A DNA stretch of 64,000 nucleotides from Chiloscyllium plagiosum (lineage: Eukaryota). Made by a program: the position numbers and the translations under genes. This document shows positions 22,738 to 60,148 of this stretch, in pieces. Below the pieces are notes generated by a model. It ran no database searches, was not told the DNA's origin, and worked only from the letters and a program-made list of their open reading frames with translations. The stretch lies in assembly GCF_004010195.1 (NCBI RefSeq), contig NC_057718.1, forward strand, positions 95,916,354-95,980,353. The letters are read 5' to 3'. Numbering within the stretch: the stretch's first letter is position 1; each line of letters starts with the position of its first letter.

Positions 22738-22788
22738 CAATTTCAAATAAACCTGTTGGACTATAACCTGGTGTTGTTTGATTTTTGA
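22738..22788 (+). mobile_element. Short family B Penelope mini-element remnant
   Basis: aataaacctgttggactataacctggtgttg; 11-bp flanking repeat ctatgtcaatt at 22727-22737 and 22789-22799. Confidence 0.75.
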
Positions 22789-23391
22789 CTATGTCAATTC
22801 GAATTAGCTGATCATGACTGAGGCAATGAAATAAGCATCTCCGTTTGAAAACTTACTAAAATCAGATTACGGTCAAAGGTAATAAATTGCCTTATGGAAT
22901 TGAATTTTCCTAGATGCCTTTGGATGCCAGACAAGTCAATGGGAGCAAATAGCTCTTTCTAACAGCTGATGGTGTTTTTTTTATTTCTGATGGTGGATGT
23001 TTACCCGCTAAACCACTGTGGGAATTCCGGGAGGGGATAGTCTTCATTATAACATTACAGCTGGCAGGAAGGTCAGAGTATTAACGAGACGGGAGAGATT
23101 GAAATGATTATTCATTTCTTCACACCAATTTACATGGAGGTGGTGAAGAATAAGTTAGGATTCGTTATTGTTTGCTGCTGCTGACTAGAAAGTGTTCCTT
23201 TTGGAGGTGAGAATCTCTTTGTTTTTCATTCATTATCAAACTCTCAGTTATGTTCCAGTTCATCACAAGGTTCCTTCAACACCTATATTTTTAACTTGTG
23301 GCATTGTGTTAGGAATTAGGGGTCCTCTTTAAATCTGTGCACTTTTAATATTCCATAATTTATGTTCCATAATAGAGAGGAGGCGGGGGGG

Positions 23392-37792: not shown

Positions 37793-40419
37793 GTAACACT
37801 AGGGTATAGTCCAACATTAGACCTGCCCAAGTGTCCTAAAAGCTTGTGATTTCAACTAAACCCTGTAGCACTGTAACCGGATGTGGTGTGACTTCTGACT
37901 TTGTCCATCCCAGCGGCAGCTCCACATCATGCTAACAAACAGACACATCCAGCTAAATATTAAGAAAAGGGAGGTGACTCTGAGAATGGGGTCTTCTGAG
38001 CTCCAATGGGGGAGAAAGGAATTGGTTGACAGCGCACTCACTTCCAGAGCTATATGGTGGAACAATTTTACAAGGTTAATCTGCCTTACATTTATTTCAG
38101 CACATTTCCATTTTAAACTTGCACAAATGAATATCGACTCCAGTGGCGGTCTTGCGCCCATTTTAAAGAGAGGCCTGTGGTGAATGAGGCAAATGGGAAA
38201 CAGTGGCCGACACTTCGAGCAAACTTCGACCCAATATTGGAGCACTTTATAATTTTAGAAATAAAAGCAACACAATGGGCTGCTGTTTACGTTGCAAATA
38301 TTTTGTAAGATGTTCCATAAGCAGCAGTACACCATGCTGGTCAAAGTACAACCAGAATAAATAGTTCTCAAAGTAAAACAGTTTTACGATTATTAAATCC
38401 AGCTGATTCACTGCCTGGAAGCATTTCGAAGACAATATTGGGATCTGCATAAGCGGATGCTCCACATCTTGTTGCAAATTATACAGAATTAATCAGCTTA
38501 AGCCAAACGTTCTTGACAGACGATCTTATTTTCTGTGTTGTTAAACAGACCACTTCACTTGGTATGGTTGACATTTCATATCGTATATCATTTTATAAAA
38601 ATCTACAGCTTAAGTTTCTGTGGCATTTTTTTTTGCACTGAGTGAAAGGAAACAGGCTGTTTATGGGGTTTTAATTATACTCTCTGAAAACATGAGCAGC
38701 AGCAACTCTGCATGTGTCCTGTAACCCACTTGCAACATCCGACTTTTTGAAAATTAAAAGGTGCAGTGCCTTTTTTTTTATTACTGCTTTCTGGTAAAAC
38801 CTGTTTTGCTTTTACAAAAAAATAAGTAAGCATGATAGGATTTAGGAAATATTTGCCACACTGGAGCAAGGCAAACTAATACCACAGCAGGCCCTTGAAG
38901 CTGCCATAATCTCCTTTTGGGAAAATAAACATGACTCTGTGAATTAATGTTACCACCTAATTATGAATGTCATGAATGTCAATAAAAGTTCTCTAATTAG
39001 TTTGTTTTGGTTTTGTGCATGAGCTTGGGAGACTCAAAGAGAGGTGCACAAAATAGGTAACGATTGTAGAATAAGTGGATGTGTTCAATTTTTATGATTT
39101 GAAATGAAACAATTAAATTCAGAACAGCATATAAAGATGACTTAGAGGAACATAGATGAATAACACATCTTTCCCTTTTTTTAACCAATTTTTACAGAGA
39201 TGAGTGTTTACTTTACTTTAATCTGTTGAATAATTAGAAATGATACCTCTCCTGATTACAATTGTTCAATCGCTTGAGGTTCTTTCAGTTTATTTGGTTA
39301 AAAGTGAAAGCTGTGGGATAGATGAGCTAACTATTGAACTCTACAGATAACTTGGGAAGTTAGGAAAAGGTGAAGGGTTGCCTTTGTTAATTCATGATAG
39401 CATTATCACAAAATACACAAGTCCAGGAGTCTTGGACATGGATGGGATTTGGGTGGAGAAGAGACGTTATAAAGGCAAGAATTCACCTGTCAGAATGCTG
39501 TCAGGTCCCCTAAGAGAAACCACAAGGTTTGAGGAAGCATAAAGGATGAAATAATTGGTACTGTCAGAAAGCTGTGCCAATAATCAGAGGGAATTTGAAT
39601 CTATCTACCGCCTGGTATAAAGTCAGATGGGCAAAGATAGCACAGATGAGATGTTTTCGGGATTGTTTCCTGGAATAGCATGTTCTGGAGCCAACCAGAC
39701 AGCAGGGTATACAAATCCTGCTATGTTTCAATGAGATAAGATTAATTAATGACCGCCTAGTGAAGGTGCCACGTCATTGGCTCTGGAGGCTTGGTTGGGC
39801 AAATCTGGAGGCAGTTCTTGATTTTGCAGATGCATTAACATGAACGTCCAAGGGCTGGAGTGGGTAACACCCAAGTTTGAAGTGGAGAGCCCGGCGACCA
39901 GTGGAGTGTCCCGGGTGAAGACTTCTGAGGAACATGTGTTTGTGACTCCCCCTCCTTGGGTGCCTCCTAGCACCACTTTTCATAGTGAGGGATTTCAATA
40001 CTTGAGCAGGGAAGTCATTCTGCAATTATACAGGGCATTGCTAAAACCAGGTAGAGCCAATCATCATATGATTGAACTCTACAGTTCATTTGTGGGAGAT
40101 AAGAATGAGTCAGAGTATTTTTTAACCCCATAGGGCACTTATGGGGTCATGAAAGCAGAAAGTGAAGTGACAAATAAGGAATACATGAATAGAGATGCAG
40201 TGGCAGGCATTTATAGGGATATTTCAGGGTACACAGAATAGATATATTACAACATGAAATAAAAAAGACTCCAAAGAAAGGACTGATCATTCAGTTATTC
40301 AAAAATGTTAAAGATAGCATCAAGCTTAAAGAGAAAGCATGAATTTGTGCTAGTTTGGGTGAACAGGTCAGAGGAAGACACAAAATATAGAATGTAGCAG
40401 ATACAAATAAAAAAACTAT

Positions 40420-42844: not shown

Positions 42845-43050
42845 TAACTGTGGATGTTGTAAATCAGGGACAAAAGTAGAAATTGCTGGAAACGTTCAGC
42901 AGGTCTGGCAGCATCTGTGGAGAGAAATCAGAGTCAATGTTTCAGGTCGACTGAGGGAGTGTTTTGAGGAAGAGTAATTTGACCTGAAACGTTAACTCTG
43001 ATTTCTCTCCACAGGTGCTGAGCTTTTCCAGCAATTTCGATTTTTGTCTT
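42845..43050. mobile_element. Old Penelope-derived fold-back element (family C)
   Basis: tgtggagagaaatcagagtcaatgtttcaggtc ... gacctgaaacgttaactctgatttctctccaca inverted arms with decayed hammerhead core. Confidence 0.8.
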
Positions 43051-45629: not shown

Positions 45630-46250
45630 GGGCAGCCATTACCTGCTGTATCCTGATTTGTGGCATCTGTTGCTCCTGAGTGGTCTCCTCTACATTGGAG
45701 AGACTGAATGCAGACTCAGGGACCAGTTCAGGGAACATCTATGATCCGCACGTTCCAACCAACCCCACCTTCCAGCTGCTAACCGTTTCAACTCCCCGTT
45801 CCACTCCCCCAACAACATGTCCATTCTGGGCCTCCTCCATCATCAACACAAGGCCACACTCAAGCTTGGAGAAAAACACCTCATCTTCCGCCTCGAAGGC
45901 TTGCGACCATATGGCCTCAACATAGAATTCACCAGCTTTCACATCTCCCCAACCCCCACCTCATCCCAGGCCTAGCCCTCCCTATCCATCCAACCCCCTT
46001 TACCTAGCCTTTCCTTTCTAACTACCCGCTTCACCCTTCCCACTGACCAATCACAGCCACCTCCTGCCTGCATCGACCTATCACCATCCCAGCTACCTAT
46101 TCCCCCAGCTCCACTCCCCACCCTCTGTTTATTTGGCAGCTGCCCCCTCCCCCTCCCTCAGTCCTGATGAAAGGTTCCGACCTGAAATGTTGACTCCCGT
46201 TCTCCTCTGATGCTGCTTGATCTGCTGTGCTGTTTCCAGCTCCACACTTT
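45630..46250 (+). mobile_element. Penelope-like element 3' fragment: GIY-YIG endonuclease remnant, 3' UTR and hammerhead
   Basis: GLLYIGETECRLRDQFREHL*...PAANRFNSPFHSPNNMSILGLLHH..KATLKLGEKHLIFRLEGLRPYGLNIEF; C-rich UTR; tail gatgctgcttgatctgctgtgctgtttccagc shared with family A. Confidence 0.9.
46160..46195 (+). ncRNA. Minimal type I hammerhead ribozyme motif in the Penelope 3' UTR
   Basis: AGUC-CUGAUGA-A-AGGU-UCCG-ACCU-GAAA-UGUU-GACU; stem I AGUC/GACU, stem II AGGU/ACCU; stem III probably CpG-decayed from CGUC or CGUU. Confidence 0.75.
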
Positions 46251-54445: not shown

Positions 54446-56719
54446 AAGAAGAAAGAGGGCAGGAAGACAGCAAGTAGGTCCACGGTGAGGTAGATAATCC
54501 TGATCAAGGTTTCTTGATTCTTATCCAGTGATATTACGCAGTCCCACCCTCCCAATCAAACACCACTTGGAGATGCTTTTGCCTGGTCATTGGCAGAAAA
54601 TATAACCATCGGACCATAAGAAATAGGAATAGGAGTAGTCCACTCTGCCCCTTGAGCCTGGTCCTCTATTCAGTGGGATCATGGGTGATCCAACAATCCT
54701 CCCACATCCACTTTCCTATGTTTTCCTCATAATCCTTGATTCCCGTAATCAGATTTGGCAATGGTGATCCCGGCAATTGGTCTGCCAAGGAGTTGCAAAT
54801 TGAGTCATAACAAATGGCTAACTGGAGTAGATGTTGCAGGATCCCTGACACGTGTGGAAACAGGGATTCATTTATGAGCCAGCACCTTTGAGGAGATCAG
54901 GGGGTACAAACAACCATTGTAGAGCTTTGTCATGTAATCAATTTACAATTCTTTTTCCACAGTCGAACAACGCCAACAGCTTTTATGAGCACTAATGCAC
55001 CCAACACTTTGAGTTTGCTTTCTTCATAAAATGCCAGGTTGCCAACTGGCCTACCTGTGCCAAGAGAGAAAGTTCCAGACTCACTCCAGGCAAAAAGAAA
55101 ATGAGGGAGCAATGAATAATATTTTGTCAGTGTAGTGATTTTGTGTGCAGCTGTTCAGAAACACAATTATTGTGAGATTATTGTTGAGGTTAGACCTTAT
55201 AATTTGTAATATACCCAGTTGTAATATGTTGCGAGAGCATCTACTGCTTGTGATGCTTGGCATTGAAGCCAGTCTAAATGCCATGTAACTGGAGTAATGC
55301 TAAAGGAACATTTTAAGCTACCATGGTTCAAGTGCACGTCAAAGAATATGGATTAGGCACAGAACAGGAGCATATTTGGATAAAGTGGGTGGAGGTGCTA
55401 TGTCATATGTTAATAATCCAATAAAAATGAATGAAAACATTATGACTGACATCTATGACTTCATCTAAGACTGTGGGCACATTGGGTGACTAGTATGCTA
55501 ACTGATGAAATCAGCTTTGCTACAATTTCTTGTGCCAAGTTAGCATTGAAATTCAACATGGATTTTCTAATTAGGAACATTTTAAACTGTTCAAAGTAGC
55601 TAGGAGTAATTACAGGCTGCAGACAGAAATGCAAATTGGTAGGAGTGCGGGATTGAGCAATCCAGGATGAAATTGATATTTCCTTTGAAAATTAGTTCGG
55701 GCTTTTCATTTGTATCAAGTAATTAAAATGAACTGAAACATTAATTTTGAAGAGGGAAGTTTATCTGTAACTCCATGTCGTGAGGTTGGACTTCTAGTTT
55801 CAGCAGATATTGGATTTGCAATCAGGGTTAGATAGGAATGTGGAATTCGCAACATAAGGAGATCAGCTGTGGGCTTATTGAATGGGAATGCAGACTGGAA
55901 GGGCTGAACAGCTGACTTCACATTCTATTTCACACATTTGTATTTATCATGTGTAGGCTAATGGCAAGAGGCTGAAAACGAGAGGTCAGCTTTTTTGGAC
56001 TGACATAAGAAATTCCTTCACTCAATAGGTTGCGAATCTCTGGAATGTTTGATGTGAGAGAGCTGGGAATATTCAGTTGTGGCAAGTACAGAAAGCTAAG
56101 GGAATGAGAGAATATGGATAATGTGAGGGAAGGAAGTGGAGTTAAGGGAAATTCAGTCATAATCATATTAAATGGTGAAATAGACTTGAAGGGCTGAATG
56201 GCCTACTTCCCCTCCTATTTCTTATGATACATTTTCAGTAAAGTGGCCAGGCAATGTGACAACGAATTGTTGTAAAATAAACAAAAAGTGAACACTGGCT
56301 TCAAATGACAATGATGGAAAGATTATTCCAAGGATGTCCATCAGTTATCTGCAGTAGCTGGCATGAGCTTGTCTATCTTTAACTAGTCCTTAGGTAAGAT
56401 CCTTTACAATTGAAGATTCTGGATGGGATGGTCATACTCAACAAACCAGTCTGGGATACTATGTATAGATCCAACACCGTCAATCCTTCTTATTGGGACC
56501 TGCCTAAGTTGCTGATACCAAATGGGAAGGATGCCCAGTTGAAGTTTTTGTCAGAAGTATATACAGAGAAGGTTTATCACAGAGTACATGATGGCTGATT
56601 GCCTTACATCTGAGTTACTTGAGAGTTCATAGTAAAACCATTTGCCATCTTGAAGCTAAGTACGCATTACAACGATTGAAACATTCCAGTACACAACTAA
56701 GAGACAACTAACAACTGAT

Positions 56720-56996
56720 TACAAAATTAAAAATCACACAACACCAGGTTATAGTCCAACAAGTTTAATTGGAAGCACTAGCTTTCGGAACGCTGCTCCT
56801 ACATCAGGTGGTTGTCGAGTATAAGATTGTAAGACGCGGAATTTATAGCAAAAGTTTTCAGTGTGATCTACCACCTGATGAAGGAGCAGCATTCCGAAAG
56901 CTAGTGCTTCCAATTAAACCTGGTGGACTAAAACCCTGGTGTTGTGGGATTTTTAAATTTGTACGCTCCAACCCAACACTGGCGTCTCCAAATCAT
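56720..56996 (+). mobile_element. Penelope-derived fold-back mini-element, family B
   Basis: Arms aaaaatcacacaacaccagg...catcaggtgg / ccacctgatga...cctggtgttgtgggattttt; imperfect flanking repeat aacaactgatt / aacaaactggtt. Confidence 0.88.
56872..56906 (+). ncRNA. Minimal type I hammerhead ribozyme core (family B, intact)
   Basis: CAC-CUGAUGA-A-GGAG-CAGCA-UUCC-GAAA-GCUA-GUG; stem I CAC/GUG, palindromic AGCU stem III, CUA cleavage triplet. Confidence 0.82.
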
Positions 56997-57249
56997 AACA
57001 AACTGGTTAGTTCCTCTCAGGAATGGTTCCATATGAACTAATCGGCAGACCTTATCTCACGATGTCAATTAGCCCTTTGGGGTATTGATTGCCTTTACAG
57101 AACAGTGGAGAATTTCATCTTGAATTAGGGAAAAGGTAAACTCTGAAGGTCTTCCAAAATGGATACAGGAGGATAGTTCCCCATGCCATAATCTTCAAGC
57201 TAATTTGTCACTCTTTGTGGGATGTTGCTGATATGTACTTTCCCACACA

Positions 57250-57762
57250 ATATATCAAAGCAAGGATATTATTAATTTGGAGAGGGTTCAGAAGCGATTT
57301 ACCAGGATTATGCTGGGACTGGAGGGTTTAAGGATAGGCTGGATGAGCTGGGACTTTTTTCACTGGAGTGGAGAACGTCGAGGGGTGGTCTCATAGAGGT
57401 TTATAAAATCATGAGGGGCACGGATAAGATCAATAGCAAAGGTCATTTCCCTGGAGTGGGGGAGTTCAAAACTCGGGGGCATATTTTTAAGGTGACGGGA
57501 GAAAAAGTTAAAAAGGACATGAGGGGCAATTTGTTTACACAGCGAGTGGTTCCTATACAGAATGAACTGCCCGGGGCAGTGGTGGATGAAGGTACAGTTA
57601 CAAAATTTAAAAGATATTTGGACAGGTACATGAATAGGAAAGGTTTAGAGGGATATGGGCTAAACGCAGGTAAATGGGGCCAGTTTAGATCTGGAATCTT
57701 GGTCGGCATGGACAAGTTGGACTGAAGGGTCTGTTCCATGCTGTATGACTCAATAACTCTAT
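57250..57762 (+). mobile_element. CR1 3' fragment
   Basis: MRGTDKINSKGHFPGVGEFKTRGHIFKV...LFTQRVV...NELP. Confidence 0.9.
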
Positions 57763-57960
57763 ACAGTAATATATTACCTTAGGAGAGGATTAGCACAATA
57801 GTGAATTACCCCAATAACACTGGACCTGAATAGAAGCACTCAAACGAGAATGATGTCCTAGTATTGTTCCCTGCAAAGATGTCCTTTTCATTTCTGAAAC
57901 TTGCTTACAAGAACTTAAGAACCAGGAGCAGGTGTAGGTAATCCAGTCCACCGAGCCTGC

Positions 57961-58293
57961 TCCATCATTTGATATGATCATGGCTAATCTTGCCTTAGCC
58001 TCAACTCCACTCTCCTGTCCACGCCCTATAACCCTCCGACCCAATACAAAAATCTCTCTCCTCTTAGATTAATTCAATGTCACAGCAACCACCGCACTCT
58101 TCTCCTGTTCCCTAGATGCTGCCTGACCTGCTGCGCTTTTCCAGCAACACATTTCCATCATTTGATATGATCATGGCTAATCTTGCCTTCGCCTCAACTC
58201 CACTCTCCTGTCCACGCCCTATAACCCTCCGACCCAATACAAAAATCTCTCTCCTCTTAGATTAATTCAATGTCACAGCAACCACCGCACTCT
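57961..58293 (+). repeat. 140-bp direct duplication enclosing a 53-bp family A Penelope fragment
   Basis: 57961-58100 matches 58154-58293 (1 mismatch); insert 58101-58153 tctcctgttccctagatgctgcctgacctgctgcgcttttccagcaacaca. Confidence 0.92.
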
Positions 58294-58970
58294 AGGTCAG
58301 TGAATTCCACAGATTCATGACCCTTTGAATTTGGGTCTAGTTCAGTTTGGGAAACTTGTTCAGCATGGACAAGTTGGACCGAAGGGTCTCTTTCCATGCT
58401 GTATGATTCATTGATCACCAAGAATAACTAAAAATATGATCTGCTCCAAGGGTGTGGTATGAATTATGATCCTGACTTTGGATCCCAGTTAATCATTGAA
58501 ATACAGTAGATATGGTCATTATTCTGATGAAGTGCATGAACAGTAAAACCTGGTGTGTAGACAGACAGCTATTTACAGTGATGTGCACAAATATGTAAAG
58601 TTGTTAAAAAAAGACGCGCAGAAACCTTGGTTTTGCACTGAACCATAAAGCATATTTTCTTTTTGCCTTCTAGTATTTTCTTACAGATAGACAACTTATA
58701 TTTTAATAATCTGTCACCCAATGGTCACGAGAGACCCATTTTTTAATCGTCAACTGAGAATTCTGAACCAGTTGTAGTATCCCAACATGATTGTCATGTA
58801 CCTTGCTGTTAGGGTGTGCTTGTGCTATGTGGACTGCAGTGGTTCAAGAAGTTAGCTCACTTCCACTACCCTTCAAGATGGGTGACAAATGCTGGCTGAG
58901 CCAGCAATTCCCACATCCCATGGAAGAATTCTCAAAACTGTTGTGCTGGCACGAGTGAAATTCTACTCAC

Positions 58971-59185
58971 CTGTGGTCCACCCCTTAATGTTTAGCTCTG
59001 GCTCAACTCTTTCAAAGTGATGCCACTTTGAGAAAGAATGTGAAAGGATCCCAGGCTCAGGATACGTCCAATAGAAATCCAAGCCATTTCAATTGTCAGT
59101 GTCCACACTGTCTGATAACACAGCCCATTTGGGTGAGGTACCGGGTAAGACCAATGCACCCAGGAGAAGAGATGAGGAGGAAAAC
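58971..59185 (-). other. Candidate 215-nt spliced exon (non-coding, UTR or terminal-coding)
   Basis: Minus-strand acceptor ttagctttctctttgcag|G and donor CAG|gtgagt; stops in all three frames. Confidence 0.4.
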
Positions 59186-59519
59186 CTGCAAAGAGAAAGC
59201 TAAATAACTAAAAATGTTATTTTGCATTTTAAGTTTCTGACTGTTTCAATCCTGGGGTAATCCCAGGAACAATGGTTGCTTCCTCCAAATGTCTATAGGC
59301 AGAATTTTGATGTCAATATTGCATTATTGATGGATGGCTCATTAAGGGCTTGATTTTAACTGAGTTGAAAATCACATATAACAGGACTTCAATTGGCCAA
59401 ATCAGTTACACACTCAGGGAGCAATGAAGACAGTTAACCTGACTACAACTGGTATCTCTACCATCTAGAAGGGCAAGGGCAGCAGATACATGGGAACAGA
59501 ATCACCTTCAGGACAATCA

Positions 59520-59636
59520 GCTGATGAAGGTGAGGTGCTCCGAAAGCTAATACTTCCAATTAAACCTGTTGGACTGTAACCTGGTGTTGTGTGATTTTTG
59601 TACTTCCCAGTCCAACACCAGCATCTCCAAATCATG
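59520..59636 (+). mobile_element. Single-arm family B Penelope mini-element
   Basis: ctgatgaaggtgaggtgctccgaaagcta...aaacctgttggactgtaacctggtgttgtgtg...ccaaatcat. Confidence 0.8.
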
Positions 59637-59915
59637 ACCTTTCAAGACACCCACCATACTGATTTGGGATTGAAGTTCCTTCACTGTTGCTGGGTTAAAC
59701 CTTGGAATTCCTTCCCAAATGGCATCATGGATCAAATGGATTCCAATGGTTCAAGAAGGTGACTTACCATCACCTTCTCAACGGTATGTAGGGATGGACT
59801 GGCCTAGCCAGTAATACCTATGTCCAGTAAATTATTTTTTTAAAAAAGTGATAAATCTGGGAGCATTGTATAATCTTTCCCGATCAGAACAATGGTATTT
59901 AGCTGAGCTGTTTGT

Positions 59916-60148
59916 CTCTAGCTTTCGGAGCACTGCTCCTTCATCAGGTGGTAGTGGAGAACATGATGTAAGGCACCGAATTCATAGCAAAAGTTTACAG
60001 TGTACATCACACTGTAAGCTTTTGCTATAAATTCTGCGTCTTACAAACTTATACTCCAGAACCACCTGATGAAGGACCAGCGCTCCAAAAGCTAGTGTTT
60101 CCAAATAAACCTGGACTATAACCTGGTATTGTGTGATTTTTAACTTTG
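59916..60148 (+). mobile_element. Family B fold-back mini-element
   Basis: Inverted repeat centred ~60005 (atagcaaaagtttacagtgt / acactgtaagcttttgctat); intact minus-strand core at 59916-59950; plus-strand core has GAAA changed to AAAA. Confidence 0.88.

Follow-up and report, generated by a model that had tools for sequence, protein, structure and literature searches.

Family B fold-back insertions in a shark genome as pLTR copies of a Penelope-like element, with a model of double priming on one RNA

We describe here family B, a family of short fold-back insertions represented in a 64,000-nucleotide stretch of the Chiloscyllium plagiosum genome (NC_057718.1, positions 95,916,354 to 95,980,353; hereafter the window), where it occurs together with a second such family, family A. 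Family B is, with near certainty, the pseudo-long terminal repeat (pLTR) of a Penelope-like retroelement (PLE) with the known minimal hammerhead ribozyme. The mechanism that best accounts for its copies, to which we give a probability of roughly two in three, is double priming on one RNA molecule with run-off of the complementary DNA (cDNA) at the transcription start. Published accounts of PLEs already include the minimal hammerhead, covariation between lineages, inverted copies and the tail, such that the framing of the original prediction repeats published PLE biology and the remaining value is mechanistic. The origin of PLE inverted copies and one-sided tails, and cutting in animals, are open questions in the accessible text of PMC8557442, PMC11167929 and PMC4209133. 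Here, a rule of one tail per fold-back, a U6 junction shared by both arms, and the order of start, ribozyme, poly(A) site and priming sites lead to a specific and testable insertion model.

An autonomous-type PLE carrying the family B tail, the search proposed with the original prediction, was found, and its longer copies contain an open reading frame (ORF) for reverse transcriptase (RT) and GIY-YIG endonuclease. Its 30 best-matching genomic copies all stop at one fixed 3' position, with 5' truncation of varying extent. At locus L003 the GIY-YIG end lies upstream of the ribozyme, and the family B tail is present on 19 of 20 loci retrieved with L003 GIY-YIG DNA. Locus L078 has about 710 codons, interrupted by one stop, with RT motifs, a C-x4-CxxC linker and the motifs YIGET/RxxxH/GEHF; the linker, CHGGRCKTC, fits CX2-5CxxC, a pattern that cannot separate Neptune from Nematis. 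Pfam RVT_1 matches an L078 fragment weakly (E 0.012), full-length homologues hold both RVT_1 and GIY-YIG, and L078 is 57-59% identical to intact ORFs of about 880 amino acids (881 in the exact count). Tandem pLTR-tail-ATG-ORF arrangements, in which the tail stops at the ATG, are seen in 5/25 loci selected for the 5' part of the ORF, and the ORF stop is followed by a 3' untranslated region of about 725 nucleotides (nt) and then the ribozyme. With ribozyme C3 numbered 0, TATAAA stands at -40 and the A of an initiator (Inr)-like TCCACA at -8, and the hammerhead spans -3 to +31 with its cut at +28. Next come A(A/T)TAAA, the poly(A) site at around +56 to +58, a GU-rich element and the tail-less end at around +87; the tail follows and leads to the ATG at +121.

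Family A, known from ORF fragments, has the same linker and is 25-38% identical to family B in protein sequence; given the common linker and the related ORFs, both would be assigned to the Neptune type, by motif rather than by a tree. The two families had been taken as unrelated in sequence, with no obvious similarity of their flanks. At the DNA level this is correct, as blastn with family B queries matches no family A copy in the window, but it does not extend to their proteins. Among named matches, chimeric gene models from sharks come closest to the element protein. Two shark gene-model isoforms, P0023 (PPP1R12A-like) and P0040 (XRCC5), contain about 95 amino acids of the element ORF at 92% and 72% identity, and these pieces are either exonised or artefacts of annotation.

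In 1.60 Mb of sequence chosen by position we delimited 103 family B arms, forming 33 inverted pairs and 37 solos. One arm is tailed and the other tail-less in 28 of the 33 pairs; there are no pairs with two tails and none with two tail-less arms, and in the other five an arm is broken. The 3' ends are bimodal and fall at two fixed positions, while the 5' ends vary. A target-site duplication was scored in 18/33 pairs but in only 1/194 mismatched controls. Family B therefore has the features of endonuclease-containing (EN+) PLEs, with a tail at one end and an inverted 5'-truncated copy, and since fold-backs are present in both A and B, the expectation that they recur across Penelope lineages was borne out.

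The relation between two arms can be seen at locus L286 (1400-1625; G000:C11:83644382), where in each arm the 3' end of U6 is fused to family B directly behind the cut, at the first base that follows it. One arm is tailed and the other tail-less, both lie within a single TGCAAAA duplication, and their U6 parts match the U6 copy L269 at 31/34 and 25/27 positions; an Rfam scan did not call these short U6 pieces. Because U6 chimeras are rare and the junction is in both arms, the two arms likely derive from one RNA. The very regular shape of the fold-backs, with a tail on one arm only, likewise suggests that a single RNA molecule was probably the template for both arms of each. An exact-pattern search, which overlooks diverged copies, found three U6 junctions in family B, all at the base following CUA, with U6 context of at least 23 nt in two and 12 nt in the third (C30:18156235). 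Wide-gap pattern controls covering about -8 to +46 gave no further U6-B junction apart from a look-alike at C29:2224716, which is AT-rich and by its appearance due to chance. In family A, 2/20 dispersed U6 copies examined (of 48 listed) are fused exactly at the cut, after GUC (L266:109-220 and L279:102-208, oriented). RtcB joins U6 to 5'-OH RNA, as the accessible text of PMC6789731 reports for L1. We infer that the ribozyme cuts some RNA in the germ line and that U6 is occasionally ligated to the resulting 5'-OH end before copying. The idea that copies end at the cut site was set aside, with just 1/103 arms (at 59918 in the window) of this kind.

Other U6 copies have their own associations. 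Three overlapping U6 matches on opposite strands at G000:C31:9507364-9507615 may be a second fold-back with U6 in both arms. Ten of the 20 dispersed U6 copies (L270, L271, L273, L277 and L280-L285) join what appears to be a single tRNA-derived family of short interspersed nuclear elements (SINEs), at or near its 5' end, and L267 joins a tRNA-like sequence.

An arrangement with one tailed and one tail-less arm, and with features such as the L286 junction common to both, is also predicted by snap-back, in which a tail-primed cDNA folds and is copied back as DNA, and endonuclease cleavage at the boundary of the tail defines the second end. Under snap-back, however, the tailed arm could be no shorter in the 5' direction than its partner, whereas among the 28 pairs the tail-less arm is the longer in 15, the tailed arm in 7, and the two are equal in 6. 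The tail-less arm exceeds the other by about 3 kb at L078, and at L286 it extends 7 nt further into U6. As a sole route snap-back is largely refuted and we consider it very unlikely, leaving it for pairs whose tailed arm is longer. Since the tail-less arm is so often the longer one, it is in general no DNA copy of the tailed arm, and both arms of a fold-back are then inferred to be RT products, begun at two start sites.

According to the reads, a functioning poly(A) site lies past the ribozyme and before these two RT start sites. Run X19 consists of raw poly(A)-primed single-cell reads from organism B, which is not shown to be the window species, and its family reads carry long A runs beginning 12-13 nt past A(A/T)TAAA, at places where the genomic sequence lacks an A tract. 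On the window element there are 444 such ends at 56930 and, in the inverted arm, 360 and 257 at 56749 and 56752; locus L017 has 350 and 421 reads, although these counts come from the same run and are not independent. Run X20 has 0 reads on the element, and those of X19 may derive from the element promoter or belong to host transcripts. It follows that a processed RNA stops short of the two RT start sites, so copying begins on a 5' pLTR or on read-through RNA.

The 5' ends of the copies are not evenly spread. Among family B arms that reach +3 (two arms with short 3' ends left out), 44/74 end within -14 to +3, compared with 8.2 expected from the upstream rate, and in 11/33 pairs both arms end in this peak. 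In family A, 142/209 arms end in the peak versus 20 expected. Transcription from a TATA box begins at an initiator a set distance downstream, and long family B copies have TATAAA 32 nt upstream of the Inr-like A. We take the pile-up copies to be run-off products at the RNA 5' end. Just upstream of the Poseidon-type hammerheads L085, L131, L158, L194, L197 and L204 we also noted TATAAATAG and TCAGT/TCACT about 31 nt apart.

Alternatively, the pile-up could reflect either RT stalling or a joining of arms by microhomology within the self-complementary ribozyme region, with no transcription start involved. We judge this unlikely, though it agrees with a peak that is broad, with the few bases shared at many arm junctions (negative gaps), and with several of the points given below. 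It does not readily explain why the peak persists among solo arms (13/30 versus 2.1 expected) or why its upstream edge tracks the Inr-like A of each family, at about -8 in B and at -4/-5, adjoining CTCATT, in A; nor does it call for a TATAAA at the spacing found, and there is no stable structure upstream (z 0.46).

A number of observations count against double priming with run-off. The family B peak is about 18 nt wide, and its windows were picked after seeing the data, so that p values overstate the case. A pile-up was predicted for the Poseidon-type lineage, whose hammerheads show the clearest TATA/Inr spacing, yet only 2/45 arms end near the predicted start (with a 4-copy profile and mixed subfamilies). 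An extra G, the mark of a cap, gives an ambiguous signal: it is present in 6/8 cases in family B, five of them duplicates or otherwise explained, and the extra base in family A is G in 8 and A in 8. No molecule starts were seen in the reads of X19, a poly(A)-primed library, and the Drosophila virilis Penelope promoter is TATA-less and internal (PMC2377424, accessible text). The excess of 5' ends just past the cut is slight (9 versus 2 in B, 21 versus 15 in A), and the argument for a shared RNA comes from one locus, L286. No intact family B ORF was found in 45 loci, which are too short or too biased to exclude one, the longest open stretch being 500 amino acids. Finally, PAc, studied in vitro, showed no strand difference in RT start site and its ribozyme cleavage was dispensable, according to the available part of PMC11167929; the same source reports that two RT start sites bound the PAc tail.

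In the double-priming model, the copies would be 5'-truncated pLTRs and each fold-back the scar of one insertion. RT would prime twice on one RNA, at the tail end and again about 35 nt further in, with the two nicked target strands as primers. A transcript starting at about -8 would carry both RT start sites close to its 5' end, and for this reason about half of the cDNAs passing the ribozyme would run off, giving abundant stubs of 90-130 nt and near-symmetric palindromes. Longer copies would require a template continuing upstream, which could be a read-through RNA, a circle or a switched template. Cutting would be by a ribozyme dimer or with the help of protein, and the 5'-OH end so formed would occasionally be ligated to U6 and then copied.

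The hammerhead motif itself is more frequent than expected by chance. A minimal-hammerhead descriptor gave 111 matches in the 1.60 Mb and 0, 1 and 1 in three shuffles, while CTGATGA alone, at 20 occurrences and a shuffle mean of 15.1, is not enriched. An Rfam scan of the window (E<=1) reported no hammerhead family, only miRNA models on palindromes. The features of the minimal hammerhead (core, bulge 9/10.1, G10.1-C11.1 pair and palindromic helix III) occur together in the window only at 56872-56906, and this is also the only one of five window motifs that conforms to the consensus previously attributed to every element; its predicted cut would follow the CUA triplet ending at 56903, at the position originally proposed. 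Monomer folding of the window copies yields no hammerhead (z 0.07 for 56872-56906), and the RNA of 56720-56996 forms a single long hairpin in which the ribozyme is buried in duplex (z -15.8). The fold-back, which pairs the ribozyme with its own antisense, is an insertion scar and not a functional RNA. Neither B nor A has a conserved AG, and a stem I 3' splice site like that of D. virilis was rejected on this ground.

The original prediction proposed that covariation of the stems shows selection on RNA structure. The stem variants it quoted do exist: GGAGC/GCUCC, AGCU and CAC/GUG in family B, GGGC/GCCC and ACGU in family A, and AGGU/ACCU and AGUC/GACU in the lineage at 46164; helix III has CG at its centre in A but GC in B. 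Stem I, on which the descriptor placed no demand, has 12/15 Watson-Crick pairs when five lineages are compared, a level equalled by 3/120 permutations; these lineages are related and some are based on two copies. Between lineages this agrees with the proposal, and such covariation is already published, as are inverted copies (PMC4209133 and PMC8557442, accessible text), but covariation within family B is weak. The structural alignment suggested for the family B copies, with 46 copies after removal of 6 of the 52 extracted (indels) and with the 60063 window copy among the additions, has 89.5% of stem cells paired, and 4/500 shuffles match its covariation score, a level attainable through relatedness alone. 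It contains only one clear two-sided change, from C-G to U-A in the outer pair of stem I, and the four U-A cells apparently represent one older subfamily. Only 20/46 genomic copies keep the core complete, which argues for selection on the master element and not on each copy; master elements would maintain the hammerhead while genomic copies would decay neutrally.

The same figures bear on the idea that family B stands on its own as a non-autonomous retrozyme or SINE, with selection on the fold-back RNA of each genomic copy. Most copies are indeed short and non-coding, they are numerous (57 insertions in 1.35 Mb extrapolate to about 150,000 in a genome of 3.56 Gb), and family reads are found in RNA. 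But the copies form a nested series of 5'-truncated versions of a coding element, at least one core base is lost in 26/46 and G12 is changed in 14/46, the ribozyme is buried in the fold-back duplex, and the 103 arms are dispersed as solos or inverted pairs with no tandem arrays, by which retrozymes are defined (bioRxiv 10.64898/2026.07.22.740005, accessible text). This reading is already contradicted by the ORF linkage and we regard it as exceedingly improbable. The genome of the window also contains many fragments of long interspersed nuclear elements.

Hammerheads of other lineages were encountered along the way. Further PLE lineages lie at 46164-46248 and 42869-43048 in the window (stem II AGGU/ACCU and others), and the 1.6 Mb contains at least six hammerhead lineages. 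One family A subfamily (L101:8836-9070) is very young, as 40/40 matches listed are 99-100% identical, and has a perfect stem I, AUUC/GAAU.

The family B features of the window are collected in Table 1. The three elements and two remnants originally placed there were recovered where stated, except that one of the three, at 59513-59636, is a solo arm and no fold-back. The ribozyme is mostly or wholly gone from the two remnants, which thus do not hold the motif; most of it is lost from the copy at 37795..37931. The hammerhead at 56872-56906 has stem I CAC/GUG, a bulged A, stem II GGAG/UUCC and a palindromic AGCU helix III, while stems I and II are broken in the solo-arm motif (59518-59552). The outer end of the 59918 arm lies one base beyond the cut, leaving stem I incomplete; it is unique among the 103 arms and is probably a later deletion or chance. 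The duplication at 56709 contains one indel and was judged by eye, the ungapped script having given no score. Elsewhere in the window, a local direct duplication of about 140-170 nt (58000-58310) surrounds a family A fragment at 58100-58153.

Table 1. Family B elements and their parts in the window (pLTR positions relative to ribozyme C3 = 0).
Feature	Position	Strand	Remarks
Inverted tail-less arm of fold-back	56720..56870	-	pLTR about -65 to +89
TATAAA in inverted tail-less arm	56842-56847	-	
Hammerhead motif, A9 changed, in inverted arm	56776-56810	-	
Forward tailed arm	56868..56996	+	-7 to +122; begins beside predicted transcription start
Minimal type-I hammerhead, complete core	56872..56906	+	predicted cut after CUA at 56903
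Poly(A) signal ATTAAA	56913-56918	+	from sequence
Poly(A) addition site	~56930	+	poly(A) loose ends of run X19 reads
GU/U-rich downstream element	56938-56954	+	from sequence
PLE tail, 33 nt, between two fixed 3' ends	56964..56996	+	ends at element ORF ATG
Possible target-site duplication taacaactg	56709..56717	+	compare taacaaactg at 56996-57005
Solo tailed arm	59513..59636	+	starts exactly at Inr-like A (-8)
Inverted arm, hammerhead core intact	59918..60003	-	-58 to +29
Forward tail-less arm	59995..60148	+	-67 to +87
TATAAA in forward tail-less arm	60026-60031	+	
Hammerhead, G12 to A	60063-60097	+	
Tail-less stub without ribozyme	22741..22794	+	+35 to +88; duplication CTATGTCAATT on flanks
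Old diverged copy	37795..37931	+	short inverted piece 37795-37816 and tailed arm 37833-37931

Family B shares much with the metazoan PLE pLTR hammerheads of Cervera and De la Pena (2014; PMC4209133), as given in the accessible text: type I with a short stem I, a bulge between 9 and 10.1, the G10.1-C11.1 pair, a palindromic 15.2-16.2, covarying families in one genome, and mostly single truncated copies with some opposite-strand pairs. It differs in its CUA cut triplet and AGCU helix III, and a shark lineage is not named in that text, which is also without in vivo evidence, whereas the U6 junctions of family B are an indirect record of cutting. With the EN+ PLEs Neptune and Nematis (Craig et al. 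2021; PMC8557442, accessible text) it has in common 5' truncation, partial tandems, an adjacent inverted 5'-truncated copy, a tail of 30-40 bp that is often one-ended, and the CX2-5CxxC linker before a C-terminal GIY-YIG; what differs is that here the one-tail rule comes with a count, 28/28 classifiable pairs, and is linked to a single RNA template.

The Poseidon element PAc of Anolis (Frangieh et al. 2024; PMC11167929, accessible text) has, in vitro, two internal RT start sites bounding the tail, cutting and extension of both target strands, a predicted dimer, and a ribozyme at the pLTR-ORF junction. The PAc ORF has its start within the ribozyme, and reverse transcription begins 111-118 nt downstream of that ORF start. 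The family B tail, by contrast, stops at the ATG, with the poly(A) site placed after the ribozyme and ahead of the RT start sites. U6/LINE-1 chimeras (Moldovan et al. 2019; PMC6789731, accessible text) likewise have a U6 3' end on 5'-OH retroelement RNA before reverse transcription, but with variable junctions, in contrast to the one fixed bond, the hammerhead cut, in family B. We found no published account of twin priming on one RNA or of U6-hammerhead fusions in PLEs, nor one of shark Neptune pLTRs, pLTR poly(A) sites or strong-stop copies, in a search that left outside subscription papers, repeat databases and the supplements of PMC4209133 and PMC11167929.

Retroviral LTRs have a U3-R-U5 structure with promoter, start, poly(A) site and priming site in that order, and their minus-strand strong-stop DNA is a short run-off product. 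Family B is unlike a retrovirus in having no tRNA primer or integrase and no demonstrated strand transfer, and in priming on nicked target DNA; it is like one in the order of its parts and its short run-off product. For Neptune-type PLEs in general, we consider it an even wager that a protein dimer primes the two nicked target strands from two fixed sites, about 35 nt apart on one RNA, that the pLTR is a U3-R-U5, that the stubs are its strong-stop DNA, and that U6 fusions record germ-line cutting. If so, the hammerhead would lie wholly within R, between the TATA/Inr start and a working poly(A) site, and strong-stop run-off DNA would account for the great number of short ribozyme stubs that animal genomes contain.

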